64,000 nucleotides of DNA from Escherichia phage EJP2 (OQ411014.1), one strand, 5' to 3'; counted from the first letter of the stretch, positions 35,034-58,537 are shown. The notes: a model not told the origin generated them from the sequence alone. Translations and numbers: made by a program.

Positions 35034-35291
35034 ATGGCTAACGTAATTCGCTCTCGAAAAATGATTTCTGGTAATGACCTTCGCTATCTGAACAACTATC
35101 GTCATCTTTTCCAACAGTTGGGTAAAGGTGTAAAAATGACAGTTATTACTGATACCATTCAGGAACCAGAAGACATTTTTGGTGTATACCATAGCGTTTT
35201 CAATCTATACATCAAACGTGGTCTGTTGGACGTAAAAACCATTACTGAAATTGATGACGATGAAGAGATGGAGAATTTCCTGTTCCTATGA
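35034..35291 (+). CDS. hypothetical protein
   Basis: 85-aa ORF with AAGGA RBS. Confidence 0.55.
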   Translation: MANVIRSRKMISGNDLRYLNNYRHLFQQLGKGVKMTVITDTIQEPEDIFGVYHSVFNLYIKRGLLDVKTITEIDDDEEMENFLFL

Positions 35292-35434
35292 ATAATGAAT
35301 ACTACAATGCTTGGTCGTACGCGATTGAGTTTTGTCGAAAGTACGACATATGCACGAGTACTAAAAAATGGAAACCGTGGGAGAAGAAATTCTTCTTCTA
35401 CATTTATAACCTAAAATTAGGACGTGAGGTGTAA
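35288..35434 (+). CDS. small ORF (48 aa), unlisted in ORF track
   Basis: ATG overlaps upstream stop (ATGA); in-frame to TAA at 35432-35434; speculative. Confidence 0.3.
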   Translation: MNNEYYNAWSYAIEFCRKYDICTSTKKWKPWEKKFFFYIYNLKLGREV

Positions 35435-35454
35435 CATGCCAGAACCATTAGATC

Positions 35455-35973
35455 GTGATGATGATTTCATGGATGAACGCTATGGTGATAAGGATGAGTA
35501 GATTCCTTACACTAGCTGATGTAATCAAGGAGGCTAATGATTATCTTGACAGTAAACCAGTGTTCAATGATAATGCAAAGGATACAAGAACATCTTTCGT
35601 CCCGAATTTGATTAACACTGCGTACGCTAATATTATTGACGTATTCGTGTGTCCACGCTATGCTATTTTCAAATTCCGTGATGTTGAGAATCTCGTGGAG
35701 TATCAACTATCAGTTCTTCCGTGGCGTAGTGGATTTTCGTTTATGTCATGGGATGATAGTTATATTGATGACGGTGAAGACATGCGGCATCTTTCAATGG
35801 GGTTTATTACATCAGAAGAACAGTTCTTCCAAGAATCGTTGAAACGTGATTTGTCATGGGTAGAATTGGTTGACGTTATCAATGCCAAGAAACTTCATGA
35901 CCGCATCTTTGAGTACTATGGTATTACACCATGTGATGATGAGCAGGACCAACTAGGTGACGTATACAAATGA
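35455..35973 (+). CDS. hypothetical protein, paralog family A (C-terminal SEEQFFQESL)
   Basis: family motif near C-terminus; true start may be ATG 35494. Confidence 0.55.
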   Translation: MMMISWMNAMVIRMSRFLTLADVIKEANDYLDSKPVFNDNAKDTRTSFVPNLINTAYANIIDVFVCPRYAIFKFRDVENLVEYQLSVLPWRSGFSFMSWDDSYIDDGEDMRHLSMGFITSEEQFFQESLKRDLSWVELVDVINAKKLHDRIFEYYGITPCDDEQDQLGDVYK

Positions 35974-36488
35974 AAGTAGAACCGTTCAGTACTGAATTTA
36001 TGCTGGTGGACGTATCACTCTCCAATTTCAAGCGTACTATGCGAAATTCTGGAGTGCACTATTATCGTTTTAAGAATAAACGATTAGTGCATGATACGAT
36101 TCATAACACTGTAAAACTTGTATGTGAATATCAGATTGATGAAGATACTCACACAAACCAAGTTCTGCACTTCAATTACAAAACTAACGAGTTGACTGCA
36201 CTCTTTACTGTAGTTCACAATAAAGTCAAGGAAAAATTCGTAGGTAAATATAAGTTCACGCTAGACGAATGTGAGTACTTCTTACTAAGTTTATCTGCGG
36301 AGAAATATTTTCCTAGTCTACAAGATTTAGTTCAAATCAATTCAGTAGTTCAAGAATTGAAAGAAGATGTGAAGTCTTGGGATGAAGAGATGACCGCTGC
36401 CGCATATAAGCGTCGTGTTGAGAGTTTTCATAAATGGGAAATGAAAACAGGTCGGAAGTTATTTCATTATAATAGTAAGGCAAAATAA
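35970..36488 (+). CDS. hypothetical protein
   Basis: 172-aa ORF. Confidence 0.55.
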   Translation: MKVEPFSTEFMLVDVSLSNFKRTMRNSGVHYYRFKNKRLVHDTIHNTVKLVCEYQIDEDTHTNQVLHFNYKTNELTALFTVVHNKVKEKFVGKYKFTLDECEYFLLSLSAEKYFPSLQDLVQINSVVQELKEDVKSWDEEMTAAAYKRRVESFHKWEMKTGRKLFHYNSKAK

Positions 36489-36742
36489 TGAGTGAATATT
36501 CAAACGTATTGAAAGCAATCATTGCTGATTTGGGCGAAGATTGTGCTAATGTTTCCGAAGAAGAATACCAGTTGTGGAAGATGAACTATGAAAGTCTCCC
36601 AGAGCATGATAAAGTATTCAATCTTCTAGGTGCAATGTCACAGTACTTGACTTGTGCATCTAAAGCTAGTGCAAGTATCTTAGCTACTGCGGTAGTTTGC
36701 ACAGAACGTTGGTGTAACGAAAAAGATTTGGAGAATTTCTAA
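36488..36742 (+). CDS. hypothetical protein
   Basis: 84-aa ORF. Confidence 0.5.
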   Translation: MSEYSNVLKAIIADLGEDCANVSEEEYQLWKMNYESLPEHDKVFNLLGAMSQYLTCASKASASILATAVVCTERWCNEKDLENF

Positions 36743-36760
36743 TATATAAAAGGATTTTAT

Positions 36761-37618
36761 ATGCAACCAATAACAGTACTTAGTCTGTTCAATGGAATGT
36801 CAGGCGGGATGCTTGCTTTAAACGAAGCACAAATACCCGTACATAAGTACTATTCATCTGAGATAGATAAGTTCGCAAACGCTGAGTCCCAAGCGAATTT
36901 CCCTGATATAGTCCAGTTGGGTGATGTTACCAAGTGGAAGGAATGGGATATTGAATGGGACAAAATAGATCTACTCATGGGTGGATTTCCATGCCAGGCA
37001 TGGTCTGTGGCTGGTAAACAGGGTGGAACGAACGATCCACGTGGAATGCTATTCCATACTATGGTTGATATCTATCATCATATTAAGGCGTTGAATCCGA
37101 ACTTGAAAGTACTGTTCGAGAACGTCAAGATGAAAGAAGACTTCAAGCAATACATTGATGGTATCTTAGGAATGACACCTAAGATGATCAACTCTCAAAA
37201 CTACACTGCTCACTATCGCCAGCGATATTACTGGTACTCATCTGATAAGTACTTTATCCCGCCTCCTATCATGTCTTCCCCTTCACTGCAATCAATTCTT
37301 GATAGTGATTACACTGATAGAGAGAAATCGTACTGTATAGATGCGAACTATTGGAAGGGTGGAGATCCTAACCAGTACTTCAACAAGTCCAGGCGGCAGA
37401 TGGTGTTCATGGACCCTGATATTGATAGAGAGTACCTTATTGAAAAGGGTATAAACAAGATTGACTATCGTAAGCTAAGTGTAGTAGAATGTTGTCGTTG
37501 TCAGGGAGTGCCGGATGATTACTTTAAAGTGTCCAGCAATACCCAAGCGTACAAGATGTTAGGTAACGGGTGGACTATCCCAGTCATCGCTCACTTATTA
37601 CGTGATATATTCTTTTGA
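36761..37618 (+). CDS. DNA (cytosine-5)-methyltransferase, orphan
   Basis: motif I LFNGMSGG, motif IV GFPCQAWSVAG, motif VI ENV; no adjacent restriction endonuclease candidate. Confidence 0.85.
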   Translation: MQPITVLSLFNGMSGGMLALNEAQIPVHKYYSSEIDKFANAESQANFPDIVQLGDVTKWKEWDIEWDKIDLLMGGFPCQAWSVAGKQGGTNDPRGMLFHTMVDIYHHIKALNPNLKVLFENVKMKEDFKQYIDGILGMTPKMINSQNYTAHYRQRYYWYSSDKYFIPPPIMSSPSLQSILDSDYTDREKSYCIDANYWKGGDPNQYFNKSRRQMVFMDPDIDREYLIEKGINKIDYRKLSVVECCRCQGVPDDYFKVSSNTQAYKMLGNGWTIPVIAHLLRDIFF

Positions 37619-37648
37619 TATAATACTATGACTTACAAAGGAGAGCAT

Positions 37649-38218
37649 ATGAACTTTATCAAGTTCAATACATCTGAGTCAGAAGCATACTTTGATACAA
37701 ATAATAAATTCAATATTATTCTAAAAGACGGAACAGTTATTATCGGAGTATCATTACTATCATTTGATGGTGAAAACCGCAAAACTGTTTATAAATTCAC
37801 CAATCTTGATGGTGATTACTGGGATACATCAGATGTATCTAAAATTTGCACACATTATGTATTTGAATCAATTGAAGTTGGTGATGGATGGGCGTTGACT
37901 TGTAATGGTAATAAAGTATTTTCTGGTAACATATTTGGGGTAATCACCGAAAAGGAAATAGTAGACCATCATCTTCATGTCCTCAATGATACTGCTAACA
38001 CTTATACACCTGATAATATCAACCTTCGCGATATTGTAACATATACTGATTGTAATGGTTTCAGTCATAAAGCAATCGTAACTGAAGTCAAAAAACCAAG
38101 AAATTATTTCGACCACGGTGTAATTGAAGTATATATGGTAGATGTTGATAAACAATACTTTGAACATTTCACTTATACTGGTTGGGATAAATTCCTAACC
38201 GTTATTGAAGAATATTAG
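37649..38218 (+). CDS. hypothetical protein
   Basis: start moved to ATG 37649 with AGGAGAG RBS. Confidence 0.55.
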   Translation: MNFIKFNTSESEAYFDTNNKFNIILKDGTVIIGVSLLSFDGENRKTVYKFTNLDGDYWDTSDVSKICTHYVFESIEVGDGWALTCNGNKVFSGNIFGVITEKEIVDHHLHVLNDTANTYTPDNINLRDIVTYTDCNGFSHKAIVTEVKKPRNYFDHGVIEVYMVDVDKQYFEHFTYTGWDKFLTVIEEY

Positions 38219-38272
38219 GATTACTCGTGTTCTTGATACATTTTTTACTAATTCAATGAGGTTTTTTATAGT

Positions 38273-38791
38273 ATGCCAAATACAAACAATTACAATATTC
38301 CGTCACTTGCTACTGCCAAATCAGACCGCATTAGTGAACAAAAAGAATATGTGAAACGCCGTACGGATGGTGGTTTTTGTCCAGAAAAGGGTGACCGCGT
38401 ATTCTTCCAAACAACCGACCGTGATGGTAATATTGGTCGCAGTGGTTATGGTAAAGTTAGTGGTAAACATCAGTACAGTTCAAAACACTACATGTACTTT
38501 ATAGACTGTGATGATGCTACAATAGAGAATGTTGTTGTTGGACATCCTAGTGGTTTCTATCCAAAGGACTTTATCCAGTTGGAATCAATGTATAATAAAG
38601 ATAAAGAACTCAAACCTGAAGTTGTACCAAAAGAATACTTTGGTCTATATGACTTCAGAACTCAACGAGTTGAACTTGGAAGTCTATTCACATACCGTTC
38701 TGATACGTTTGAGTATGCAACATCGAAGTACGGAAACCCATTACCACATAATTTAACGATTCGTGCATTCATCATACACGAAAAGTTATAA
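38273..38791 (+). CDS. hypothetical protein
   Basis: 172-aa ORF followed by terminator. Confidence 0.55.
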   Translation: MPNTNNYNIPSLATAKSDRISEQKEYVKRRTDGGFCPEKGDRVFFQTTDRDGNIGRSGYGKVSGKHQYSSKHYMYFIDCDDATIENVVVGHPSGFYPKDFIQLESMYNKDKELKPEVVPKEYFGLYDFRTQRVELGSLFTYRSDTFEYATSKYGNPLPHNLTIRAFIIHEKL

Positions 38792-38798
38792 ATCATAC

Positions 38799-38823
38799 GG
38801 AGTCTTTTTTTAGACTCCTTTTA
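38799..38823 (+). terminator. intrinsic terminator
   Basis: GGAGTCT / AGACTCC stem, T6 loop, then TTTT. Confidence 0.65.
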
Positions 38824-38850
38824 AATTGAATATCCACACTAGGAGTTGTA

Positions 38851-39231
38851 ATGAATCAATTAGATTGGCTAGACAAAGCTCTTGAAAAGATGCGAGCCGA
38901 AGATCCTGAAGTCCTGCACAGAAAGTTATTCGGATTTAGTGCCGCCGAATTTGAACAGTACTGCAACGATTTGACATTCTTTGATGAAGCCAAAACTGTT
39001 CTTGACTTTATGAAGAGCAAAGACTACACGATCATTAACATCTATGATACTGATGATTTTGAGTTACCTTCTCGGATGTTCTTACATTATTTCGAATCTT
39101 ACTGTACTGAAGGATACGATGAATCCTTTTGGAGTGGGTATGGTGCACATACATTGACACATGATGAATTGCAGTTACAATATCTTTTCGTTAATGGTCA
39201 GGGGACTGAACATTTCTTTCGGATTATCTAA
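38851..39231 (+). CDS. hypothetical protein
   Basis: 126-aa ORF with AGGAG RBS. Confidence 0.55.
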   Translation: MNQLDWLDKALEKMRAEDPEVLHRKLFGFSAAEFEQYCNDLTFFDEAKTVLDFMKSKDYTIINIYDTDDFELPSRMFLHYFESYCTEGYDESFWSGYGAHTLTHDELQLQYLFVNGQGTEHFFRII

Positions 39232-39233
39232 CT

Positions 39234-39602
39234 ATGTATGAAGATTACAAAGTAGTACTGGAACCTAAACATCTTGTAAAAATAAAACAAATTTATAAAA
39301 GAGCACATGAGTCCAATGAACCACATTCTTACATTGTAAATAACACAATGTTTTATCTGTGTAAGGGTTTTGCAACAATGACTCGTTCTGGTGGTAATTT
39401 TTATGTAATTTCACAAATGCATAATGACCACATAGAAATCTTCAAAATGAGTTCAATGGGAAAAATTACACATAGCCATACACTCAAATATTGTAATGAT
39501 GAAGACTATTTGTTTCAACTTTCCCTTGTGTGTGATTTTGATTTGACATTAGACGATATGAATCTTATGATTGGTATCCGAGACAATATAGTAAAGGAAT
39601 AA
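39234..39602 (+). CDS. hypothetical protein
   Basis: 122-aa ORF. Confidence 0.55.
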   Translation: MYEDYKVVLEPKHLVKIKQIYKRAHESNEPHSYIVNNTMFYLCKGFATMTRSGGNFYVISQMHNDHIEIFKMSSMGKITHSHTLKYCNDEDYLFQLSLVCDFDLTLDDMNLMIGIRDNIVKE

Positions 39603-39603
39603 A

Positions 39604-39816
39604 ATGAAATACCTAATAAAAGAAGTGTTTGCATTTCTGTATGTGTTGCTGTTGAGTATAGGCTCAATTACGTTAGCTCTTACTCCTTCAATTGTGTACC
39701 AATTCATTTGTGTATCAAATGATTATAACTTCGATGAAACGATCCATTTCACATTACGTGTTTTTGGCTTCATTGTGTGGTTATGTGCATTTAGTTATTT
39801 TATGAACAGGAAATAA
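39604..39816 (+). CDS. small membrane protein
   Basis: 70 aa, two hydrophobic segments. Confidence 0.5.
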   Translation: MKYLIKEVFAFLYVLLLSIGSITLALTPSIVYQFICVSNDYNFDETIHFTLRVFGFIVWLCAFSYFMNRK

Positions 39817-39817
39817 T

Positions 39818-40117
39818 ATGAACAAGCACGAAGTAATTATCTTTGACCGGAAAGTATTCGTACCAACCGAGAACAGTACTGAATCGTACTATCTCATCAA
39901 TGAGATCATGTCCGCAACTAGTACTAGCTGTGAGCAGAAACCAGGTGAGTACATCTTCAGTCAGACCATTGGGTATTATCGTTACAAAGAAAAAGAACAT
40001 TTTGACATTGATTCTGAAAAAATCATTGCAGTACTGAAAGAATGTGGCTATAATGAATGTATTGAAAACGACACTACCTTACCAGTTGTCGTGTTTACAC
40101 TAAACCCAACCATCTAG
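39818..40117 (+). CDS. hypothetical protein
   Basis: 99-aa ORF. Confidence 0.55.
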   Translation: MNKHEVIIFDRKVFVPTENSTESYYLINEIMSATSTSCEQKPGEYIFSQTIGYYRYKEKEHFDIDSEKIIAVLKECGYNECIENDTTLPVVVFTLNPTI

Positions 40118-40126
40118 GATAACATT

Positions 40127-40405
40127 ATGCATTTCGAAAAATTCAACGCAAACCGTAACACACGTATTGAAATGTTGTTTGAAACTCAAGATACTATCAG
40201 TATTTGTACTAAGAGTGGTGATGTTTACCATGAATGTACTATTGAGTGGGAACAAGGCCGAACACGTTCTGTTGAGTTTGACAACTACCATTTCAAACAA
40301 GGCGACCGCAAGATCTGGCCTGAACTGGTAGAAAGCATTGCATATGAAGATGAAGATAAAGAATCTTTTATCAAAGAAAATCCAGAAAATGATGAAGATT
40401 TTTGA
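40127..40405 (+). CDS. hypothetical protein
   Basis: 92-aa ORF. Confidence 0.55.
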   Translation: MHFEKFNANRNTRIEMLFETQDTISICTKSGDVYHECTIEWEQGRTRSVEFDNYHFKQGDRKIWPELVESIAYEDEDKESFIKENPENDEDF

Positions 40406-40431
40406 GCATTTTGAAGAAAATGTGATATAAT
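40400..40431 (+). promoter_or_regulatory. extended -10 promoter (TGTGATATAAT at 40421-40431)
   Basis: exact recurring 11-mer upstream of tRNA pair. Confidence 0.55.
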
Positions 40432-40485
40432 ATAATTAAGAAAGGGACAACATGATGTTCTTTTCTTGTTAATAAATAGAATACA

Positions 40486-40576
<91 letters not shown>

Positions 40577-40689
40577 GTTTTCAAAAGGTAGCCGAAAGGC
40601 AAGTTTATAGGATTTACGGATAGTTATAAATCTGAATTGACAGCAACTCCTAACAGAGTTACTATCCGCTCCTATCTTTTCTTAATCCA

Positions 40690-40764
40690 CGGGGTATAGC
40701 TTAATGGATAAAGCAGTAACCTTCTAAGTTATTGATCTAAGTTCGATTCTTAGTATCCCGACCA
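40690..40764 (+). tRNA. tRNA-Arg (anticodon UCU)
   Basis: acceptor CGGGGTA/TATCCCG, anticodon stem GTAAC/GTTAT with loop CTTCTAA, T-arm CTAAG-TTCGATT-CTTAG, encoded CCA. Confidence 0.8.
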
Positions 40765-40779
40765 AATAAGAGACACAAC

Positions 40780-41286
40780 ATGAACTCCAGAATCTATAAA
40801 GAACTAACTAATATAATGTATGAATTTATGGATTTTGAAGTCCAGCTTGGTGTCATATGGGGTCACACCCAACCCCGTGCCACAGATTTGTTTGAAAACT
40901 GTGGCTATTTTGTTTCTGATTGGTCATGGTATGATGGTCACATTGTATCATTACTTTCTAAACAGTACCCAAATATTGAAATTGACTACGCTGCTTGTGC
41001 TGATTCTTATACATTTAGCAGTACTGAATTTCCTGGTTTGGCAATATGTATAGAAGAAGTTCCTAAGATAAGGACAGAGCCATCAGATCATATCTTTAAT
41101 AGAGTTCCAATTTATAAGGTACTTGAAAATAGGTCAGAAGAAGTACGTATTACTAATCCAACTCCAGAGTTCAGTGAGTTCGTACAAGAATTATGTCAGT
41201 GGGTGATGACATTTGACAAGTCAGAAGAACTTGATTATACTGTCAGTATATATGTACAAGAAAACATTGAGGTCACTGAACTATGA
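40780..41286 (+). CDS. hypothetical protein
   Basis: 168-aa ORF. Confidence 0.55.
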   Translation: MNSRIYKELTNIMYEFMDFEVQLGVIWGHTQPRATDLFENCGYFVSDWSWYDGHIVSLLSKQYPNIEIDYAACADSYTFSSTEFPGLAICIEEVPKIRTEPSDHIFNRVPIYKVLENRSEEVRITNPTPEFSEFVQELCQWVMTFDKSEELDYTVSIYVQENIEVTEL

Positions 41287-41720
41287 TCAATTATGAAGCA
41301 GTACTGAAATCATTTATACACTGGTTGAACGACGATATCGTATACAAAACCATTGTGCGTACTAGAAATGATGAATACATTCCTATTCAGTATTTGGATA
41401 AGAATGAAGATATCTTCTTAGATAATGAAAACCTACATTACAGTTATCAACACTGGGAATTGAACACAACTACCCAAGCTGAAAGCCTGACTTCGTACTT
41501 TGGTATTGATATAAATCGTGATGGTTCTATTGTTATATTATATAATCCATCAGGAAGTGTACGTGATAAAACTCCACCTGCACGATTTAATATTAGTACT
41601 ACAGAAGAGGAATTATTCCAACTTAGTACTATCCAAGAGGATTATGACGTAACGATGGAAGTACTGAAAGAGTTTGCTAAACTGCACGAGAAATATTTTG
41701 GGAACCTAGACGATGTGTAA
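41283..41720 (+). CDS. hypothetical protein, paralog family A (TEEELFQLST)
   Basis: family motif near C-terminus. Confidence 0.55.
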   Translation: MINYEAVLKSFIHWLNDDIVYKTIVRTRNDEYIPIQYLDKNEDIFLDNENLHYSYQHWELNTTTQAESLTSYFGIDINRDGSIVILYNPSGSVRDKTPPARFNISTTEEELFQLSTIQEDYDVTMEVLKEFAKLHEKYFGNLDDV

Positions 41721-42159
41721 TAGATATAACATAAAGATGATCCAACGTGGATTTGATGTGTTTAAAAATATCATTGCAGCTTATAGGTTCTTGATGGAAG
41801 TTGATAATCTTTCTGAACTTGACTTATGTAATGATTTCTGTATAATTGATGATGCTGGTAATCGCAATACTGCATCAGCCACTATAGACGATGATAGAAT
41901 AATTTTCTCATTTGACGCTGCTGGTGTTATAGTTGATAACAATGAACTGATTTACACGGAATGTCTATATGATGATTCTGGACATAAAATCAAGTTCATC
42001 GTGAAGAATCCGAAATTCATTGTAAATGAAGAAACATTCTTCCAAGCGAGTATGTTGTATGATTTGTCTGATGTGAAAAGTTACGAATGGTTTGTAACTA
42101 TTATGCAAACATATGATTTCGTTATGGATTTCATGAAAATGGATTTTGAACAATACTAG
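41713..42159 (+). CDS. hypothetical protein, paralog family A (NEETFFQASM); tandem duplicate of next gene
   Basis: shares FIVNEETFFQAS..DLS.V..YEW.V.IMQ with 42168..42572. Confidence 0.6.
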   Translation: MCNRYNIKMIQRGFDVFKNIIAAYRFLMEVDNLSELDLCNDFCIIDDAGNRNTASATIDDDRIIFSFDAAGVIVDNNELIYTECLYDDSGHKIKFIVKNPKFIVNEETFFQASMLYDLSDVKSYEWFVTIMQTYDFVMDFMKMDFEQY

Positions 42160-42167
42160 GACTTAAA

Positions 42168-42572
42168 ATGATTGATCTTCAGAAACTGCTAATGGTTCAG
42201 TATGGTTTTGATGTGTTGTCGAGTAGTGATTTATCGAACGTGAATTTGAAAGATTTTGAATTCATTATCAGAGATGCAAACAATAACAGTACTGATGCTT
42301 ATGCGTCAATTCATAACGAAAGCGTTGATTTCACATTCAATGATTGTTCTGTGTATGTTGATGCTACAGAAATCGAAATCGTTTACCGTGTATATAGTGA
42401 AAACTACGCGGACGATATCGAATATATCCTTTGTATTGAAAATCCAACTTATATAGTGAATGAAGAAACTTTCTTCCAGGCTAGTACACTTCAAGATTTA
42501 TCAGAAGTTCCTGGGTATGAGTGGATTGTTTCTATTATGCAAATGTACAAAAATATTATTACTAAGGTATAA
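42168..42572 (+). CDS. hypothetical protein, paralog family A (NEETFFQAST); tandem duplicate
   Basis: near-identical C-terminal 40 aa to previous gene. Confidence 0.6.
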   Translation: MIDLQKLLMVQYGFDVLSSSDLSNVNLKDFEFIIRDANNNSTDAYASIHNESVDFTFNDCSVYVDATEIEIVYRVYSENYADDIEYILCIENPTYIVNEETFFQASTLQDLSEVPGYEWIVSIMQMYKNIITKV

Positions 42573-42573
42573 T

Positions 42574-43092
42574 ATGAAAGAGCTTATTGAACGTGTAGAT
42601 TTCTTTGAACTGATTGCATTGGAATTTGATCCAGAATGTACTGATATTCTTTCAGATGTACCAATCTTCCCTATTGAAAACGATGATGGTACTTCATCGT
42701 ACTTAGAAGATTACGAAGATTATTTGCGTAGCTTCTGTCCAACATCAAACGATAAAGTGCATCTCTTTACTGAAATTATTCATGTACAATACAATACAAA
42801 TAATAAAGAAATTGTATTATGTGCAATGGATACATTCAACAGTACTGAAGCTGGTATTGCACGTGAGTATGCTAAACTATATCTCATTGATACAGGTGAG
42901 TATTGTAAACTTACCATCAAGGAAAATTCATTTATATTCAATAACAAAGAATATAAGCTAGGTACTACTGAAGAAGAGAACTTCCAGATTTCATGTACTG
43001 ACATGGGTTACTTCAATAATGTAGTAAATGAAGTAAAGAAATTTATTCTTCAAGATATTGACAAGAATGGATTACCTGAGTATAATAAATAA
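42574..43092 (+). CDS. hypothetical protein, paralog family A (TEEENFQISC)
   Basis: start moved to ATG 42574 (track ORF begins 42460). Confidence 0.55.
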   Translation: MKELIERVDFFELIALEFDPECTDILSDVPIFPIENDDGTSSYLEDYEDYLRSFCPTSNDKVHLFTEIIHVQYNTNNKEIVLCAMDTFNSTEAGIAREYAKLYLIDTGEYCKLTIKENSFIFNNKEYKLGTTEEENFQISCTDMGYFNNVVNEVKKFILQDIDKNGLPEYNK

Positions 43093-43101
43093 CAGAATTA
43101 C

Positions 43102-43191: not shown

Positions 43192-43204
43192 TATTAGGAT
43201 TTCA

Positions 43205-49885: not shown

Positions 49886-49888
49886 CAT

Positions 49889-50728: not shown

Positions 50729-50759
50729 GTCAGTACTTTAACCAACTAAGGGTAATGAA

Positions 50760-50939: not shown

Positions 50940-50940
50940 T

Positions 50941-51456
50941 ATGTTTTCAATTATGTACAAAGATGAGAATAATCAGCCACAGTACTTAGAGAGTTCCAGA
51001 TTTTACTCTTGGACTGATGATCTCGACGATGCTGCAAAGTTCGCACAAGAGAAGACAGCAGAAAAAGAAGTCAAGAAGATGTACAAAAATGGCTTCGATG
51101 AACAACTCTACGTAGTCTCTGTGAAGTGTGTTGCTATGTCTTTGAATACTGTAAAAATGCCCCCTATGAAGAATGGGTATACTTTCTGGTTGTCTGTTAC
51201 TGAAGAGTTCTATCGTGGTCCTAAGAAAAACTTCGGATTCAGTTCTTTCAGTACTGCGGTAAGTGCATGTACTATATTCAAAACAGAAGAAGAAGCTGAA
51301 AAAACAATGCAAGAATATATTCAGTTCTTGCAGGATTGTTATAATATGTATAAAACAACTTCACCTTCGTATAAAGTATATAAAGATACATATGATAAAG
51401 AATCAGTACAGCTTCGTGTTGTGAAAATTGTTGATGGGAAAATGCACAATGCGTAA
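50941..51456 (+). CDS. hypothetical protein
   Basis: 171-aa ORF. Confidence 0.55.
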   Translation: MFSIMYKDENNQPQYLESSRFYSWTDDLDDAAKFAQEKTAEKEVKKMYKNGFDEQLYVVSVKCVAMSLNTVKMPPMKNGYTFWLSVTEEFYRGPKKNFGFSSFSTAVSACTIFKTEEEAEKTMQEYIQFLQDCYNMYKTTSPSYKVYKDTYDKESVQLRVVKIVDGKMHNA

Positions 51457-51937
51457 AATTCATCACAAGATGAAACCCTTCTGGAAAGAAGTTGATGGGC
51501 TGGTGGAGTACTTAGTGTACTACCATGCATTTGGTTCCGTCTATGAACGACAAGGCTTGAAGGACCGTTCCATCTGTATCAATAAATCCAAATCGTACTT
51601 CATTTCATTTCAGTACGATAACTTATTGTACATGATTCTTTACAGCCTGAAGAACCCGAATGTGTTTTCTATTGAGATTGCAGATACATGGGACAAAACA
51701 TCATATTCTACACTATATGATTTCACTGTACCAGTACTGCTAACTGAAGAAGAACTGTTCAGTAAAGCATTGACGCAAGACATTGCGGAGTATAGTATTG
51801 AATTGCATAAGGAAGTATATAATTACTTCATGTACGTTCACACTATGCTTGGGGTTGGTCAGTTGAAAGATATGGACCCAATCACACCGCACATCCAGTC
51901 AGTACTGGATTCTGTAAAAGATTTGAAGAAGTGTTGA
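51431..51937 (+). CDS. hypothetical protein, paralog family A (TEEELFSKAL)
   Basis: family motif; start ambiguous (ATG 51431 or 51449). Confidence 0.5.
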   Translation: MMGKCTMRKIHHKMKPFWKEVDGLVEYLVYYHAFGSVYERQGLKDRSICINKSKSYFISFQYDNLLYMILYSLKNPNVFSIEIADTWDKTSYSTLYDFTVPVLLTEEELFSKALTQDIAEYSIELHKEVYNYFMYVHTMLGVGQLKDMDPITPHIQSVLDSVKDLKKC

Positions 51938-51962
51938 CATAGGGGGAATCTTCCCCTATAAT
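51934..51962 (+). promoter_or_regulatory. consensus sigma70 promoter with palindromic spacer
   Basis: TTGACA 51934-51939, spacer contains AGGGGGAATCTTCCCCT, TATAAT 51957-51962. Confidence 0.55.
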
Positions 51963-51989
51963 TAATTCATACAAAACGCAGAGGTTAAC

Positions 51990-52691
51990 ATGGACATTAC
52001 TGATTCTTTAATTGTGGTATTACGTAATCACATACAAAAGCACTTCAATAGGACTGAAATTAGAAATTTCAATTATGAACTATCTGAATGCACCAAGCTG
52101 CAATTTGTACACGAAGAACCATTTAAGGTTATTAGTGTAGCATTTGTTTCCGAAGGTGGGTGTACACAGCATCCGTTCTTTGAGTTCGAGGACAAATACT
52201 TAAAGAGTGCATTTAGCTATGAAGATACTATTTCAATTGAAACATCAAGGATTGCACCAATTCATATAGAAACGATTCCGTGGAGTCGATTACTTGATGC
52301 ACCTGCAATTCAATGCGAACCTGACTGGGTGGGACTTAGTATTGAAGTAATATCGTACATTCAATATCCTACGTCAGACGATTATGGATTTGCTCTTGAT
52401 GCGTACCTATTACAATGTACTGATTTGAAGATGAAAACAGTACTGAAGACTTCCAGAAAGCGAACTGACCTGATATACTATAAGGATGAGATTATAGCTA
52501 TCATGTCCGGTACTGGATCATATGGGATGCGTTATACAGTACTCAGTACTGATAGAGATAAGTTCACTGAAATGATACATACAATCATTACAGAATCCAA
52601 AGCTGAAGATTACAAAATTCCAATTGAACATACGAAAGTGATTGACTTCACCCAAGACCCTGATGTATACTTTCATGTACCAGGTTTATAA
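51990..52691 (+). CDS. hypothetical protein (233 aa)
   Basis: ORF with GAGG RBS. Confidence 0.55.
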   Translation: MDITDSLIVVLRNHIQKHFNRTEIRNFNYELSECTKLQFVHEEPFKVISVAFVSEGGCTQHPFFEFEDKYLKSAFSYEDTISIETSRIAPIHIETIPWSRLLDAPAIQCEPDWVGLSIEVISYIQYPTSDDYGFALDAYLLQCTDLKMKTVLKTSRKRTDLIYYKDEIIAIMSGTGSYGMRYTVLSTDRDKFTEMIHTIITESKAEDYKIPIEHTKVIDFTQDPDVYFHVPGL

Positions 52692-52710
52692 ACAAACATA
52701 GGAACAGAAA

Positions 52711-52905
52711 ATGAAATTTTTTGAACGTATCGTCGCATCAATCAAAGCATATCTTGGTAACAACAACACAGGCCCAGGTGAGCTAGAGTGCTGGCGTGAT
52801 TGGGATAAACGTATGGATAGTATTGTTCCAGCGGCACATCCTAAGACGTATGACCGTTACGACCCGAAGTACAATCTTCATGAAAAAATTGAAAAAGATT
52901 CATAA
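52711..52905 (+). CDS. hypothetical protein
   Basis: 64-aa ORF. Confidence 0.5.
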   Translation: MKFFERIVASIKAYLGNNNTGPGELECWRDWDKRMDSIVPAAHPKTYDRYDPKYNLHEKIEKDS

Positions 52906-52939
52906 AAAAATGAGACAAACTGGAAAATTGTGATATAAT
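52905..52939 (+). promoter_or_regulatory. extended -10 promoter (TGTGATATAAT at 52929-52939)
   Basis: exact recurring 11-mer. Confidence 0.55.
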
Positions 52940-53036
52940 ATAATTATCCAAACATCGTCGGATGTAAAACGAAAAACTCACAGCGTTCAATCATTTGAAC
53001 GCAATTCTATAGAAAAGTAATAAAAGGATTTATAAA

Positions 53037-53258
53037 ATGGCTAACGAACTAAACCAAACCGCAGTAATCGCTGACATTTCCGATGTAGAACGTACCATGA
53101 ACTACATTCAATTCCAACTAAGTCAAGCAGATGCTGAATTGGCTACCTTTGCTGGTACAGATGCTAAGAAAATCTGTTATGTTCACCTACTTGCTTGGAA
53201 GCAAGAGCTACAAACTGAACTACATGAACTACGCAAAGCTCTAAAGCGTAAAGCATAA
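53037..53258 (+). CDS. hypothetical protein
   Basis: 73-aa ORF with AAAGGA RBS. Confidence 0.5.
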   Translation: MANELNQTAVIADISDVERTMNYIQFQLSQADAELATFAGTDAKKICYVHLLAWKQELQTELHELRKALKRKA

Positions 53259-53272
53259 GTTCATAATGAATG

Positions 53273-53299
53273 CCATCCACATGGGTGGCATTTTTAAAC
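53273..53299 (+). terminator. intrinsic terminator
   Basis: AATGCCATCC / GGGTGGCATT stem then TTTTT. Confidence 0.65.
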
Positions 53300-53319
53300 T
53301 TACCTATTTGGAGATTATA

Positions 53320-53568
53320 ATGAAACAAGGCGATTTGGAGCAACAAGTCAAACATCTACACAAACGTATTGAGCAGATGAAAGCCCAACGTACAGAAGCG
53401 TGGAGTAAATGGCAAGAACTACAAAACGTACAAGCAACTCGTGAAATTCAAAAAGAAATTTCTTCTCTTTCTGGATTGATTTGTTCTCTGAACTATAGTA
53501 TTATGGGTACTCAGAAGACGTACAAAGAAGCGTGTTCCGAATTGATTTCATTCATCACTAAAGGGTAA
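53320..53568 (+). CDS. hypothetical coiled-coil protein
   Basis: start moved to ATG 53320 with GGAG RBS. Confidence 0.5.
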   Translation: MKQGDLEQQVKHLHKRIEQMKAQRTEAWSKWQELQNVQATREIQKEISSLSGLICSLNYSIMGTQKTYKEACSELISFITKG

Positions 53569-53573
53569 TAACA

Positions 53574-54101
53574 ATGTCAATTGAAATGATTTTTCTGTTC
53601 TCATGTTTAGCTTTCCTGGGTGCGTTCATTGTACTGCTAACTATCAGTACTGCGGTAATTGGTTCTAACAAAGCACTTCGTTTGCAATACATGATGAGTG
53701 CTCTGAAGAAAGATAAGAACGTTACTGATATCGTTGAGCATATCTTAGCTAAAGAAGAAGTAGGTCTTCTTGAAGTTTCACTATCTGGTAATCGCTTACG
53801 TTTTTATGAAGTAGGTGAAGTTCCAAATGATGGTCTTTCCTGGAGCAACCGTAACTCACATAGTGTTTCTATTTGGATTGGTAATCGTTATTCTAACTAT
53901 GGTTATATCGAGAAGTACTATTCCGAAGATGATTCACAGTTCGACGGTAAGTGTCCAGCATATAAGACTTGGTTGAAACTGATTGCACTTGAACAAAGGA
54001 TTGCAAACAAAGAAACTGGTATCAATACCGACAAGACCAAAGCTAAGAAAGAAACTACTTACAAAGCTGAAAAGAACAAAGTAACAGAAATCGAATTATA
54101 A
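53574..54101 (+). CDS. membrane-anchored hypothetical protein
   Basis: hydrophobic N-terminus; 175 aa. Confidence 0.55.
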   Translation: MSIEMIFLFSCLAFLGAFIVLLTISTAVIGSNKALRLQYMMSALKKDKNVTDIVEHILAKEEVGLLEVSLSGNRLRFYEVGEVPNDGLSWSNRNSHSVSIWIGNRYSNYGYIEKYYSEDDSQFDGKCPAYKTWLKLIALEQRIANKETGINTDKTKAKKETTYKAEKNKVTEIEL

Positions 54102-54103
54102 TC

Positions 54104-54127
54104 AAAAGGGGTCTTGTGCCCCTTTTT
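54104..54127 (+). terminator. intrinsic terminator
   Basis: AAAAGGGG / CCCCTTTT stem, loop TCTTGTG, T-run. Confidence 0.7.
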
Positions 54128-54138
54128 CGTGTAAGGAA

Positions 54139-54444
54139 ATGAATATGAGTATTCACCAAACTATTGTTGATAAACTCCAAGAAGTTCTCGATGAAGTTCA
54201 AGAACTTCCTGCTGGATATCAGTACAAGATTCGTGAGTTATGTTCTTGTATTGAAACTGTTGTTAGCATGTATGAAGATGTTCAGAAGGGTATCATCCCT
54301 GAAGTTTTCAAAAAGAATACGGCACAGCATGTAGATGCAGCAGAACATGAAGTTCAGGATGAACCACAGCCTGTTCAAGAAGTAAAAGAAGAAGTAAAGC
54401 CCATAAAGAATGATGTGTTGAATATCCCTAACATCGAGCTATAA
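54139..54444 (+). CDS. hypothetical protein
   Basis: 101-aa ORF. Confidence 0.5.
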   Translation: MNMSIHQTIVDKLQEVLDEVQELPAGYQYKIRELCSCIETVVSMYEDVQKGIIPEVFKKNTAQHVDAAEHEVQDEPQPVQEVKEEVKPIKNDVLNIPNIEL

Positions 54445-54446
54445 TT

Positions 54447-54947
54447 ATGATAAACCCAAAGGTACTCAAAACTATAAAAGACGAATTGACAGTACTGCAA
54501 AGTACTATCCCAATGACTCGTAATAGTGGTGTACACAATTCAACAAAGAAGACTACCGTATTCATACCCATTGATGGTGTTAGTGGTGAAGATATAAATC
54601 TCACAGTGAACACGTATCATAATGGAGAGACATTCTTTGATGGTAAGTGTAGTAACATTCATATACTCGTTGTGGGTAGAAATGATGATGTTGATGCAGC
54701 GGGGAATCGATATTCTTCATTTTTCGAGATTGACATATATCGAGATAGATTGTTCATGCCTGGAATGAATGGTGAAGGATCTATCGATTTCAGTATGTTC
54801 TCTGACGATTATGAAATTAGTGAAAAAGAATTGTTTGAATTTTTCCTAGTTACTGATACAATGGGTTTACCAGATGACCTCATGTTGACTATCATCGAAG
54901 TTACACGAGTATTACAAGATACTGATACGTTTTCACCCATATTCTAA
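54447..54947 (+). CDS. hypothetical protein, paralog family A (SEKELFEFFL)
   Basis: family motif variant. Confidence 0.55.
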   Translation: MINPKVLKTIKDELTVLQSTIPMTRNSGVHNSTKKTTVFIPIDGVSGEDINLTVNTYHNGETFFDGKCSNIHILVVGRNDDVDAAGNRYSSFFEIDIYRDRLFMPGMNGEGSIDFSMFSDDYEISEKELFEFFLVTDTMGLPDDLMLTIIEVTRVLQDTDTFSPIF

Positions 54948-54956
54948 GGAACAACA

Positions 54957-55229
54957 ATGCAAAATTTAGATGGCTTCAAACCTTTCTTCACTTTCTATGA
55001 CTTTGGTATTCGCAAAGAAGATGCTAAAGGTTTCTTACAATTTGGTGCTACTGTAGCAGGTTCCCCAAACAGTGGATATCATGTGTTCATTGCAGCACTA
55101 GGGAAACGTTCTAAAGTACTGGCAGACTTGGAACTCTTCCATAAGCTACATGTTGCGTTAGAAGATAATCAAGAGTTTTATGATTTGTGTGTTCAAATTG
55201 TAACAGAAAATCCAGAACGTAATAAATAA
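54957..55229 (+). CDS. hypothetical protein
   Basis: 90-aa ORF. Confidence 0.5.
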   Translation: MQNLDGFKPFFTFYDFGIRKEDAKGFLQFGATVAGSPNSGYHVFIAALGKRSKVLADLELFHKLHVALEDNQEFYDLCVQIVTENPERNK

Positions 55230-55365
55230 TAATACCAAAAGAAGAATAACATAATTATATCCCTCCCCTACCTATGGGATTTGGTGTACTAGTACTGCAA
55301 TAGTACTGTACATCCCGTTGGTAGACAACTTGTGTATCTCCTGCACATATAAACATCCGCAAACT

Positions 55366-55395
55366 GTCCAGCTTTATGCTGGACTTTTTGTTTTT
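55366..55395 (+). terminator. intrinsic terminator
   Basis: GTCCAGC / GCTGGAC stem then TTTTTGTTTTT. Confidence 0.75.
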
Positions 55396-55397
55396 AT

Positions 55398-55408
55398 GCT
55401 GTTATAAT
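55398..55408 (+). promoter_or_regulatory. extended -10 element (TGTTATAAT)
   Basis: TGnTATAAT at 55400-55408 directly after terminator. Confidence 0.45.
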
Positions 55409-55438
55409 TTAAGTATTAACAACCATAAAGAGATAATC

Positions 55439-55828
55439 ATGAAAGCTGAACTATATGATTTATTGTTACAATCATTGAAGACTGAATTTGTATTTGACTT
55501 CAAGAACCCAACTGGCTCAATTGTATTCACGAACAAGATCGTTTATGCCAAAGCTGAAGGCGGGGCATCTGTAATCTACGTACCGTATGAAGGTCAATCA
55601 TTTTATGTGTGTATCTATCCTGACACAACAGATTACGTTACAGTAATGTACATGTCAGGTGATGATTTTGAAGAAAAAGAGGGCAGTACTGAATCTTTTG
55701 GTACATTCAAAATGATCAGTACTGAAGAAGAGTTCTTCATGAAGAGTACTATCAACGATATGAATCATTCTTTTGAATTGATCAGTACTCTTCATGAACT
55801 CCAGAAAGAACTTGACCAGTATTTGTAA
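55439..55828 (+). CDS. hypothetical protein, paralog family A (TEEEFFMKST)
   Basis: start moved to ATG 55439 with AAGAGA RBS. Confidence 0.55.
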   Translation: MKAELYDLLLQSLKTEFVFDFKNPTGSIVFTNKIVYAKAEGGASVIYVPYEGQSFYVCIYPDTTDYVTVMYMSGDDFEEKEGSTESFGTFKMISTEEEFFMKSTINDMNHSFELISTLHELQKELDQYL

Positions 55829-55834
55829 GGACAG

Positions 55835-56170
55835 ATGATGTTAGAACTACTAGAAACAATCCTGTACGCAGCTAGAGCAGAACGATATGATAAACTCGAT
55901 GCACTAGCACCTAAAGTGTTTTATGGTCGAGAAGGTGATGCGATATTGTCCTTTACTATCATGACAGAAGAAAACTTTTCTATCATGATTAGGGCAACAC
56001 ACGTCATTGACTGTCGTTGTAAAAACTGGTCTGACGCAACATTGAAGTACGGTTACAAGGAAGATGAATTCTTCTTAGAATCACTCAAGCGTGAAATACA
56101 TTTTTCCTATGAAGAATATCTACTTGCACAAAAAATTTCAGAAGTTCTAAAAAGACTCGCATATAAATGA
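55835..56170 (+). CDS. hypothetical protein, paralog family A (KEDEFFLESL)
   Basis: family motif. Confidence 0.55.
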   Translation: MMLELLETILYAARAERYDKLDALAPKVFYGREGDAILSFTIMTEENFSIMIRATHVIDCRCKNWSDATLKYGYKEDEFFLESLKREIHFSYEEYLLAQKISEVLKRLAYK

Positions 56171-56196
56171 GAAATTTAGGATAAATGTGATATAAT
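56162..56196 (+). promoter_or_regulatory. extended -10 promoter (TGTGATATAAT at 56186-56196)
   Basis: exact recurring 11-mer. Confidence 0.55.
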
Positions 56197-56199
56197 ATA

Positions 56200-56335
56200 A
56201 TTATTAGGGACATTCGTCCCAACCGCCCTCACTGAAGCATGGTCAGACTCAGTGAGCACACTACGGGTGCTCTGACTGGTAAATGGAGGCTACCATAGAT
56301 GTAGCCTCCAATTTATCCTTAAACAAAAGGAGAGC
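56200..56335 (+). other. structured 5' leader / possible small RNA
   Basis: hairpins GGGACATTCGTCCC and GGAGGCTACCATAGATGTAGCCTCC between promoter and next start codon. Confidence 0.3.
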
Positions 56336-56338
56336 AAA

Positions 56339-56785
56339 ATGAAATTCAACAAAATTCAGTTAGTGTTTGAAAACTGTGAAACTTTAGTTATTAATGCATC
56401 TGATATTGTTACATTGAAGACTTCACCAGCCCAAACTTCTTATCACAAGAACTACGGTAACAGTATCATTGAAGAACATGAAATCAAACACATCTTCCTG
56501 GCAGTGAAGAATGGCACTAAGGCTGATCCTGATTCTGTGTCATGGGACGATGACAGTACTGTGCGATTCCGTAATGACGTTACGAACATTACCTTCATTA
56601 GTGATAATGAAAGTAAAAACTACGTAGTTCGTTGGGAAGAGAGTAATACTAATAATTACTCATCTGCGTATCAGCGTTGCACAACCACTCTAGATGGTCA
56701 TCAAGTCTGGATCAACTCATCTGATGTTATTATGGATTTGCAAATTTCTGACGTTGATGAGTTAGCATCGTTTATGAATATCTAA
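56339..56785 (+). CDS. hypothetical protein
   Basis: 148-aa ORF with AAGGAGAG RBS. Confidence 0.55.
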   Translation: MKFNKIQLVFENCETLVINASDIVTLKTSPAQTSYHKNYGNSIIEEHEIKHIFLAVKNGTKADPDSVSWDDDSTVRFRNDVTNITFISDNESKNYVVRWEESNTNNYSSAYQRCTTTLDGHQVWINSSDVIMDLQISDVDELASFMNI

Positions 56786-56794
56786 GGAAATCAA

Positions 56795-57157
56795 ATGACA
56801 AAGCACCGTACATTACATAATGCAATAAAACATGTTCATACTAATATCAGTACTATCATGTCTAACCAGCCATATATATGCGGTGCTTTGGAATTCACAT
56901 CTCTAGGACACCAAACTGTCCACGCATACGAACTCTTCTGGAACACCCACAGAGCCATTACTATTGATATGTATGAGAATCACATGGCCTTCAAATCATG
57001 GAACGTTGATACGTACCGATGGATGGATGTGTGCAAGATAAGTTATGACATCACCAGGGAAGAGTTCGATCAGTTGTTGTTCGTTCATGACTTACGTACT
57101 TTGGAGTTCAAATCATTCAAGTACCTAAAGCTCATCAAAGAACACATTTTCAGTTGA
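56795..57157 (+). CDS. hypothetical protein
   Basis: 120-aa ORF. Confidence 0.55.
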   Translation: MTKHRTLHNAIKHVHTNISTIMSNQPYICGALEFTSLGHQTVHAYELFWNTHRAITIDMYENHMAFKSWNVDTYRWMDVCKISYDITREEFDQLLFVHDLRTLEFKSFKYLKLIKEHIFS

Positions 57158-57181
57158 CAATGATTTGTTATGATGTATAAT
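57154..57181 (+). promoter_or_regulatory. sigma70 promoter (TTGACA-16-TATAAT)
   Basis: TTGACA 57154-57159, TATAAT 57176-57181. Confidence 0.55.
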
Positions 57182-57210
57182 ACTAACAAATAACACAGAG
57201 GATTGAAAAC

Positions 57211-57639
57211 ATGTCATTAGAAGCTAAAGTACATTTCAAAGATACGTGGATTGACTTAACCACCAATACAGTACTGAACAATGAATTCAGTACACAAACT
57301 CTTTCTGCTGATACAGTAGAAGAACTAACCAAAGATGTTAAGCAACTCATCTCATCACGTGTTGGCTCTGACGTATACAACGCTCAACGCCATATTACTG
57401 AATTGTTAGGTGTAGATGGTATTGAATACCAGATGCAGTACAAAATGAGCAAAGAAGAGATGTTTGACTTCATTTTGACTAACAATGTAGAAATCACACG
57501 AGATGGTGCTGTTTGGACTAAAACTGACGGTCGTAAAGTTCGTGTGAAATATTCTGTCAAGATCAATGATTTGAACTTAGCTGGATATGATTTAGAAGAA
57601 GCTATTCAGTACTATCACGATACGAGAGGTTCACGATGA
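57211..57639 (+). CDS. hypothetical protein, family A-like (SKEEMFDFIL)
   Basis: degenerate family motif. Confidence 0.55.
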   Translation: MSLEAKVHFKDTWIDLTTNTVLNNEFSTQTLSADTVEELTKDVKQLISSRVGSDVYNAQRHITELLGVDGIEYQMQYKMSKEEMFDFILTNNVEITRDGAVWTKTDGRKVRVKYSVKINDLNLAGYDLEEAIQYYHDTRGSR

Positions 57640-58028
57640 TTGTAGTTGCAGTATTACTTGGATTTGCTATAATGGCTATAACGTTACGTCTTAACGGTTA
57701 CTACAGAGACGAACGATTTCGCATTGAGCGAGAGAAAGAACGTGACTTGCACAAAGAAATATATAAAGCACATGAGCCAGTAAAATCACCATATGAAGTT
57801 CGATTGTCTTTGAGTAAGGACAAGAAGTTGGGTTATGCAGTGTATGACCACAGTGTGGGGCATTTTGCGAACTCAAATGGTGTTTTTATGTGGTTTCCTG
57901 ATTCGAAAAGTGCTATGATATTTCAAACAACACTGGAAGTGATTGGTTCATATCCACTAACGTACAAAGAATATCTAGATGTAATTCTTCCTGAAGTACT
58001 AAACCAAGAGAAAACTGAGGAAAAATAA
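57636..58028 (+). CDS. membrane-anchored protein; paralog of next gene
   Basis: N-terminal TM; shares GYAVYD / FANSNG-type motifs with 58029..58379. Confidence 0.5.
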   Translation: MIVVAVLLGFAIMAITLRLNGYYRDERFRIEREKERDLHKEIYKAHEPVKSPYEVRLSLSKDKKLGYAVYDHSVGHFANSNGVFMWFPDSKSAMIFQTTLEVIGSYPLTYKEYLDVILPEVLNQEKTEEK

Positions 58029-58379
58029 ATGTTAGCTGCAATCATCTGTACTGTTATCTTTTCTGCAACGTATTATATTTGCCAGAAGAAACGTACTGAA
58101 GCGTTTGAAACAGCACAAGCTAATCAACTAGAACTTGAGCGTTCTATGTTGATACAGGAGTCCAATGAGGGTAAAGAAGATTCCCCATTCCTCATTAAAC
58201 GTGTAGAATGTAATGGTCGCTGGGGTTATGCAATTTGGGATAAACGTATTTCTGATTATGCTAACATCTCTGACCAAAAGATTGAATTCTTCAGGACATT
58301 GGCTGCGGTTTATTGTATTATGAACGAAATAGAAACTTTTGAGAACTTTAAAGTTACTAAACCTATGCATACATTATAA
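58029..58379 (+). CDS. membrane-anchored protein; paralog of previous gene
   Basis: N-terminal TM; GYAIWD...YANISD. Confidence 0.5.
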   Translation: MLAAIICTVIFSATYYICQKKRTEAFETAQANQLELERSMLIQESNEGKEDSPFLIKRVECNGRWGYAIWDKRISDYANISDQKIEFFRTLAAVYCIMNEIETFENFKVTKPMHTL

Positions 58380-58390
58380 GGAGATATAAG

Positions 58391-58537
58391 ATGATTACTG
58401 TACAACTAAATGGTGTAGAACTAGAACTATCTGTCAAGGATGCAGAGAAACTAGTAGAAGAACTGAACTTCAAAATCAACGAGTACTATTACAGTACTAC
58501 TAACGTTCCTGACTCGGAAATCCTATACCGCGAGTAA
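58391..58537 (+). CDS. small ORF (48 aa), unlisted in ORF track
   Basis: ATG 58391 with strong TAAGGAG RBS; TAA at 58535-58537. Confidence 0.4.
   Translation: MITVQLNGVELELSVKDAEKLVEELNFKINEYYYSTTNVPDSEILYRE

Follow-up and report, generated by a model that had tools for sequence, protein, structure and literature searches.

Three small genes and an overlooked 21-codon neighbour in the jumbo phage EJP2: evidence from comparative codon analysis

Are the short open reading frames (ORFs) that a 60-codon gene track leaves out of a jumbo-phage genome real genes? The question is raised by a stretch of 64,000 nucleotides (nt) of Escherichia phage EJP2 (OQ411014.1), called the window below, from the start of which all coordinates are counted. 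Its G+C content is about 37%, it carries six tRNA genes, and its long ORFs lie almost all on the plus strand. The first-pass annotation of this DNA proposed three small genes that are absent from the track, and these frames, here ORF1, ORF2 and ORF3, are indeed found where it placed them and with the lengths it gave (48, 59 and 48 amino acids). Our comparison with related phages indicates that all three are very probably translated protein-coding genes of this RaK2-like jumbo phage. In addition, a fourth micro-gene of 21 codons, the smallest and best conserved of the set, is found next to ORF1 and had been overlooked. The four frames are as follows.

35288..35434, plus strand: ORF1, 48 amino acids, predicted helical hairpin, with an ATGA overlap with the upstream gene
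50760..50939, plus strand: ORF2, 59 amino acids, phrog_12628, first cistron of the unit headed by the 50701 promoter
58391..58537, plus strand: ORF3, 48 amino acids, fourth cistron of the unit headed by the 57154 promoter, with the Shine–Dalgarno sequence (SD) TAAGGAG 7 nt upstream
35436..35501, plus strand: micro-ORF, 21 codons, MPEPLDRDDDFMDERYGDKDE, directly 3' of ORF1, with the SD GAGG at 35426-35429 and a 6-nt spacer

The open frame alone is no proof of a gene here, since 181 spurious ORFs of 40–65 amino acids, in the wrong frame or antisense, are found in the window. A codon-usage log-odds score, trained on the 85 long genes of the window, places ORF3 (0.462, the highest of the three) and ORF2 (0.315) within the range of real genes; these values are equalled or exceeded by 0% and 0.6% of the spurious ORFs, respectively. 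ORF1 (0.146) is borderline and falls into the overlap zone, where 7% of the spurious ORFs reach its score or more and 7% of real-gene chunks score no higher. The micro-ORF in its true frame scores 0.65, on a very short sequence. It is conservation, rather than the open frame or the codon score, that decides for ORF1–3 as real genes. Conservation in related phages was the check that the first-pass annotation itself had proposed, and it is found for all three. Its description of the gene array as otherwise gap-free does not hold: 35 plus-strand stretches of at least 50 nt are not covered by ORFs of at least 60 amino acids, and tRNAs, promoters, terminators, the 21-codon gene and a structured RNA are found in such stretches.

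With the ORF1 region as query, megablast finds no near-identical phage in GenBank. At lower stringency the window is matched by RaK2-like jumbo phages, among them Erwinia phage Hallingskeid (366 kilobases, kb), Kaldavass and Xanthomonas XbC2, and further by the 121Q, PBECO4, RaK2 and Munch groups. The metagenome contigs L004 (13.4 kb) and L005 are 97.3% and 99.4% identical to the window, while the contigs L003 and L019 share about 75–77% DNA identity with it around ORF1. Homologues of all three frames are called as genes in independent assemblies (P0001, 83% for ORF1; P0002, 98% for ORF2; P0003, 98% for ORF3), and homologues annotated as coding sequences are present in GenBank phages, namely XPP58578.1 (ORF1) and XPP58498.1 (ORF3) of Hallingskeid and phiTE_052 (ORF2). 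The small families of ORF1 and ORF3 are already deposited as hypothetical proteins in Hallingskeid, and ORF2 is a member of phrog_12628.

ORF1, ORF2 and the micro-ORF are under purifying selection. For ORF1, four sequences of 74–83% identity are available (the window, L003, L019 and XPP58578.1), and the frame is intact in relatives with 75–80% DNA identity. Pairs of sequences show 11–18 synonymous and 8–11 non-synonymous codon differences. For the window and L003 the count is 20 synonymous against 8 non-synonymous changes, with 5, 6 and 24 differences at codon positions 1, 2 and 3. In the two other frames of the same region the third-position pattern is gone and stops are present. The non-synonymous distance (dN) ranges from 0.10 to 0.18; five of the six pairs have a saturated synonymous distance (dS), and the sole computable pair gives a dN/dS of 0.11. 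Among three sequences 35 positions are invariant. The AlphaFold2 model is a helical hairpin with helices H3-19 and H30-43 and a predicted local distance difference test score (pLDDT) of 82.7. The Hallingskeid protein CDS0274 (XPP58578.1, 48 amino acids, hypothetical) is a full-length homologue of about 78–80% identity. In the window, L003 and L019, ORF1 is flanked by a phrog_4868 gene on its 5' side and by the micro-ORF on its 3' side, whereas the Hallingskeid homologue (L001, 2492..2638) directly follows the DNA methyltransferase gene and has its own SD; the position of ORF1 has thus shifted within the module. Apart from Hallingskeid, no phage record gives a homologue of ORF1 by tblastn, and this includes the records of 121Q, RaK2 and Munch; scans of viral contigs give no further relatives of ORF1 or ORF3.

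ORF2 shows the same pattern at two distances. Against its counterpart in L004 (97% identical) there are seven synonymous changes and one non-synonymous change (dN 0.007, dS 0.22), distributed as 1, 0 and 7 over codon positions 1, 2 and 3. At long range it is a member of phrog_12628 (E-value 2.6e-13, residues 5-54 against profile positions 12-62 of 77), a family with eight cluster representatives among 1.84 billion proteins, and tblastn finds homologues of 37–47% identity in 25 Certrevirus-type phage records. Nine divergent sequences of the family share, beyond the initiator Met, the invariant residues P10, R18, G21, F22, G33, F35, L47 and G51. ORF2 thus resembles phiTE_052 and its homologues in CR3, CR8, CR9 and vB_ExiM_F1M1E in the profile match over 50 residues and in the invariant residues, and in phiTE the homologue is likewise found within a run of small hypothetical genes. 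It differs in being the shortest member (59 against 61–102 amino acids) and in belonging to a RaK2-like jumbo phage, whereas the other members are found in Vequintavirinae phages. In Hallingskeid no homologue of ORF2 is found by tblastn. Its AlphaFold2 model consists of a beta-hairpin and a helix (pLDDT 74.8).

For ORF3, homologues of 98–100% identity are called as genes in two metagenome assemblies. The distant homologue is Hallingskeid CDS0194 (XPP58498.1, hypothetical), a protein of 51 amino acids with 43% identity and a pairwise E-value of 6e-9. It is syntenic with ORF3, being followed by a 136-amino-acid gene, a gene for a virion structural protein and, in convergent orientation, a further structural gene. 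The neighbouring 133-amino-acid gene is only 24% identical to its Hallingskeid counterpart, against 43% for ORF3.

The micro-ORF is a gene whose peptide is clearly under selection. It contains the only DNA-level match (35441..35499, 85–90%) of the ORF1 region to the distant 121Q/RaK2 groups. The encoded peptide carries the motif LD[RK]DD.[FY].DE[RK]YG and is found by tblastn in 52 phage records, all jumbo phages of the RaK2-like group; this count is a lower bound, since Hallingskeid carries the micro-ORF as well and lies outside those 52. Twelve distinct sequences agree in eight residues (L, D, D, D, D, E, Y and G), while 13 of the 13 third-codon positions in the core vary, with four codons used for the Leu and four for the Gly. 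Invariant residues over varying third positions argue for selection on the peptide rather than on an element of RNA or DNA. Nor is the conservation explained by an overlap with the next gene, since the two do not overlap in RaK2.

Two neighbouring genes are needed to describe its surroundings.

35034..35291, plus strand: 85-amino-acid gene, phrog_4868 (PHROG E-value 3.5e-18), found constantly 5' of the micro-ORF in RaK2-like phages
35494..35973, plus strand: 159-amino-acid gene, phrog_30111 (residues 4-151 against profile positions 7-154 of 154), likely start ATG 35494

Homologues of the 85-amino-acid gene, aligned by eye, are present in RaK2, 121Q, Munch, CBB, Hallingskeid and L003, and those of the 159-amino-acid gene in Munch, fENko-Kae01 and CBB. 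The micro-ORF always comes next after the phrog_4868 gene, except that in the window, L003 and L019 ORF1 intervenes, and it stands one to four genes 5' of a DNA methyltransferase gene. The genes that follow it represent no fewer than three families without relation to each other (phrog_30111 type, 121Q gp90 type and RaK2_193), which counts against a dedicated leader peptide of one gene.

The alternative that survives best supposes that only the act of translation matters and that the ORFs are leader or coupling frames for the downstream cistron, with functionless peptides. The layout of the genes would suit it. The ATG of ORF1 overlaps the stop of the 85-amino-acid gene, as the first-pass annotation had pointed out (ATG at 35288 and TGA form ATGA, 35288-35291), and this overlap is kept in L003 and L019. 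The stop of ORF2 overlaps the next start (ATGATATG at 50937-50943), that of ORF3 lies 3 nt 5' of the next ATG, and that of the micro-ORF falls into the region where the next gene starts. However, amino acids are conserved beyond what coupling needs, in the invariant positions of ORF1 as well as in the invariant core of ORF2 across nine sequences. Furthermore, ORF1 has a different context in Hallingskeid, behind the methyltransferase and with its own SD, and the micro-ORF is followed by those several unrelated families. We consider the coupling explanation improbable for these reasons.

Still less probable is that the frames are open by chance, in spacers without coding function such as 5' leaders or intercistronic regions, and yield no functional protein. 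The many spurious ORFs of similar size would allow for it, as would the borderline codon score of ORF1 and its lack of a proper SD. Against it stand the frame-specific synonymous excess in ORF1 and ORF2, the frames kept intact across relatives of 75–80% DNA identity, the protein homologues of ORF2 in an unrelated phage group and the conservation of ORF3 above that of its flanking gene. The least likely explanation, that the regions are mainly RNA elements (small RNAs, riboswitch-like leaders or processing sites) with incidental ORFs, could draw on a conserved structured RNA elsewhere in the window (26390..26786) and on the inverted repeats round the −10 box of some promoters, that of ORF2 included, but no Rfam 15 family overlaps ORF1–3 in a covariance-model search, which gives tRNAs only in 30000..64000, and the variation concentrated at third codon positions is that of protein selection and not of base pairing.

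Several points weigh against the reading of ORF1–3 as genes, or against the proposals on timing and action that follow below. Besides the codon score that 7% of spurious ORFs equal or exceed, the nearest GGAG of ORF1 lies 14 nt upstream, too distant for a normal SD. ORF3 differs at only one or two sites from each close relative, too few for dN/dS, and Hallingskeid is a single phage with a distant homologue of it; SPN3US-type matches were rejected as further homologues, as they have an E-value of 0.3, lie inside a 176-amino-acid protein and are probably due to chance. A gene whose product belongs to a family of virion structural proteins follows in the operon of ORF3, which makes the label 'early' uncertain for ORF3. 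On the mode of action, the ORF2 model finds no fold match in the Protein Data Bank (PDB; best E-value 1.9), none of ORF1–3 matches a PHROG of known function, and Pfam has no match for ORF1, ORF2, ORF3, any small protein or most of the neighbours.

ORF1–3 are found in polycistronic units with host-type sigma-70 promoters at their heads, from which they would be transcribed.

34965..34993, plus strand: sigma-70 promoter TTGACA-N17-TATAAT, 12/12 consensus positions, heads the operon of the 85-amino-acid gene, ORF1 and the micro-ORF
50701..50728, plus strand: sigma-70 promoter with TG-extended −10, 12/12, 5' of ORF2
57154..57181, plus strand: sigma-70 promoter, 12/12, heads the ORF3 operon
4341, 18827, 20727, 22674, 34965, 43058, 47030, 49354, 50701, 51934, 57154 and 61050, plus strand: perfect promoters from the consensus scan

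Perfect promoters were defined as TTGACA-N16-18-TATAAT, with the chance level taken from mononucleotide shuffles. The window contains 12 of them, all on the plus strand, against a shuffle mean of 0.14. No terminator is predicted between the head promoters and ORF1–3. The promoter and ribosome-binding site that the first-pass annotation had seen upstream of ORF2 are both there: ORF2 lies about 25 nt 3' of the promoter 50701..50728, which is kept in L004 with one spacer substitution, and the SD TAAGGG stands 7 nt 5' of the ATG. Likewise, the TAAGGAG that it reported for ORF3 is present at 58377-58383. ORF2 would thus be translated as a first cistron with its own SD and ORF3 as an internal cistron with a strong SD. 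For ORF1, the ATGA overlap and the lack of a well-placed SD make termination-reinitiation after the 85-amino-acid gene the most likely mode of translation.

The timing of expression can be approached through related phages. In CBB, RpoD-like promoters cluster among short hypothetical ORFs that are taken as early genes (PMC5259590). PA5oct, another relative, depends on the host RNA polymerase, and curation of its annotation by RNA sequencing added 49 coding sequences and is said to help find small peptides under gene-prediction thresholds (PMC7318152). The clustered consensus sigma-70 promoters of the window, together with the report on CBB, make the early label plausible. By this analogy, early expression of the ORF1–3 units driven by the host polymerase is the best inference; the label would be weakest for ORF3.

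Some of these promoters carry a further feature. At 50701, an 8-bp inverted repeat (AGTACTGA/TCAGTACT) flanks the −10 box, and an 8-bp inverted repeat is found in the same place at 57154. Perfect inverted repeats of 7–9 bp occur at 6 of 18 strong sigma-70 promoters, against 4.9% of random 45-nt windows.

14016, 20727, 49354, 50701, 57154 and 51934: promoters with inverted repeat, the −10 box lying in the loop in five of six

The arms vary between promoters, which suggests a hairpin rather than an operator for a protein. At 49354, seven T residues (T7) stand 3' of the repeat, which looks like a terminator overlapping the next promoter.

The predicted products are a helical hairpin (ORF1), a beta-hairpin with a helix (ORF2) and a 48-amino-acid protein (ORF3), and they are too small for enzymes. 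Small early phage proteins that bind host proteins are known, such as Gp2 and Gp0.4 of T7 and Stp of T4. ORF1–3 resemble these in size (26–64 amino acids) and in their location 3' of promoters of the type used by the host RNA polymerase, with a binding role presumed for the ORFs. No similarity in sequence or fold to them is found, and the comparison is one of kind only. We tentatively suggest that the products of ORF1–3 might bind host or phage proteins stoichiometrically, or modulate them, in infection. This is a guess from size, from context and from the small early proteins of other phages as an analogy, and we put it at somewhat below even chances. The finding of ORF1–3 is correct yet ordinary, as these are small accessory proteins of a phage, and the micro-ORF is the more notable one. 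ORF1–3 show that a 60-codon cut-off drops real, selected genes in accessory regions of jumbo phages. Comparative codon analysis recovers such genes without expression data, and by the micro-ORF the problem reaches down to 21 codons.

The micro-ORF product, an acidic peptide of 21 amino acids, would comprise little beyond the conserved linear motif, and it still belongs to the general class of phage micro-proteins. The family occurs in short and long forms. Short forms have 21 amino acids in Munch, 24 in Hallingskeid, 25 in 121Q and 27 in RaK2, and 21 and 23 amino acids in contigs of 350–366 kb from viral and metagenome collections (L010/L017 and L011/L021, respectively). In L003 and L019 the peptide forms the C-terminus of a 64-amino-acid protein, and in CBB_397 (L016) and the metagenome contigs L018 and L020 that of proteins of 118–125 amino acids. 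These long proteins of the CBB_397/GAP32_388 type share the motif, with the micro-ORF peptide as their last ~20 residues, and the same location after the phrog_4868 gene and upstream of the DNA methyltransferase gene; a weak C-terminal match to phrog_24806 is observed in them. The window, Munch, 121Q, RaK2 and Hallingskeid, among others, differ in keeping the tail alone, as an ORF of 21–27 amino acids with its own start, and the 64-amino-acid form of L003 and L019 is intermediate between the two. To be noted, the N-terminal domain of about 100 residues in the long forms (WNNRVVVE...DG...EVYY...EEAIAELK; L018, L020 and L016) looks HicB-like by eye and has no match in Pfam.

None of the six short-form records that we checked (121Q, RaK2, Hallingskeid, Munch, fENko-Kae01 and JNE01) has an annotation for the short form. 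In 121Q (L006) the micro-ORF occupies 1484..1561, and the annotated gp90 starts within it, at a GTG (1515) in another frame. Judged by the aligned sequences, a start of gp90 at the ATG run by the micro-ORF stop would fit the homologues better. None of 185,579 bacterial and archaeal genomes encodes the strict motif. Among solved structures, a PDB profile search gives no relatives of it, and we found no literature on the motif.

What such a peptide might do can be narrowed by two rejected candidates. The C-terminal tail of the E. coli single-stranded DNA-binding protein SSB, ...DDDIPF-COOH, is acidic and has a hydrophobic last residue with a free carboxylate. Mimicry of this tail is not supported, as the C-terminal end is acidic or Ala in 11 of the 12 family members and their conserved aromatic residue lies further inside; the sole member ending in F is the long form of L018. 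A detached tail of the 85-amino-acid gene family is not supported either, the phrog_4868 gene being complete at 85 amino acids. A further idea, which we put forward as a doubtful one, is that the micro-ORF encodes a free-standing short linear motif, the remnant of a 120-amino-acid protein that lost its N-terminal domain, and that it would act as a micro-effector, either in concert with the adjacent phrog_4868 protein or by serving as decoy or competitor at an acidic-tail site on a host or phage protein. If this linear-motif reading is true, RaK2-like jumbo phages carry conserved, unannotated effectors of peptide size, and ORF1–3 would be further members of a hidden micro-proteome. If the micro-peptide binds a defined partner, it would be a small tool for studying a conserved step in the infection by jumbo phages.

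Four genes 5' of the micro-ORF a gene for a PTH2-type peptidyl-tRNA hydrolase is found.

33355..33753, plus strand: PTH2-type peptidyl-tRNA hydrolase gene, Pfam E-value 6.7e-14

It lies in a syntenic block common to RaK2_188 and Munch_390. A link between this hydrolase and the acidic micro-ORF, for example via peptidyl-tRNA drop-off, is pure speculation.

The structured RNA mentioned above lies in another of the uncovered stretches.

26364..26930, plus strand: candidate structured RNA, 567 nt, core 26390..26786, without a convincing ORF

The stretch opens with an extended −10 element, TGTGATATAAT, and contains the hairpin CATCCCCCCGTGGGGGATG. It is matched in 61 RaK2-like phage records, with 72–82% DNA identity in the best-matching ones; the best matches lie in unannotated gaps of 600–900 nt, and there are two to four matching places per genome. 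An alignment of eight sequences supports 72 pairs, of which 94.6% are paired. Compensatory double changes are observed at 23 pairs, against 2–4 when the partner columns are slid, and none of 500 shuffles reaches 23. No Rfam family, RNase P included, matches 26390..26786 at E-values up to 10, and no literature on it was found. The terminator hairpin that follows the RNA in other phages is deleted in the window. The covariation is strong. The region probably encodes a structured RNA of about 400–450 nt that has not been described before.

Two minor observations are added. One of the six tRNA genes is unusual, as position 34 of its product is A, and it has the lowest Rfam tRNA score among the six (47.9 bits).

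43102..43191, plus strand: tRNA-Ser, anticodon ACT (ARAGORN)

Further ORFs below 60 codons are found in plus-strand gaps.

48648..48731, plus strand: ORF of 27 amino acids
44323..44472, plus strand: ORF below 60 codons
47187..47288, plus strand: ORF below 60 codons

The first of these is preceded by an SD, and a 37-amino-acid gene call in L004 coincides with it in part.

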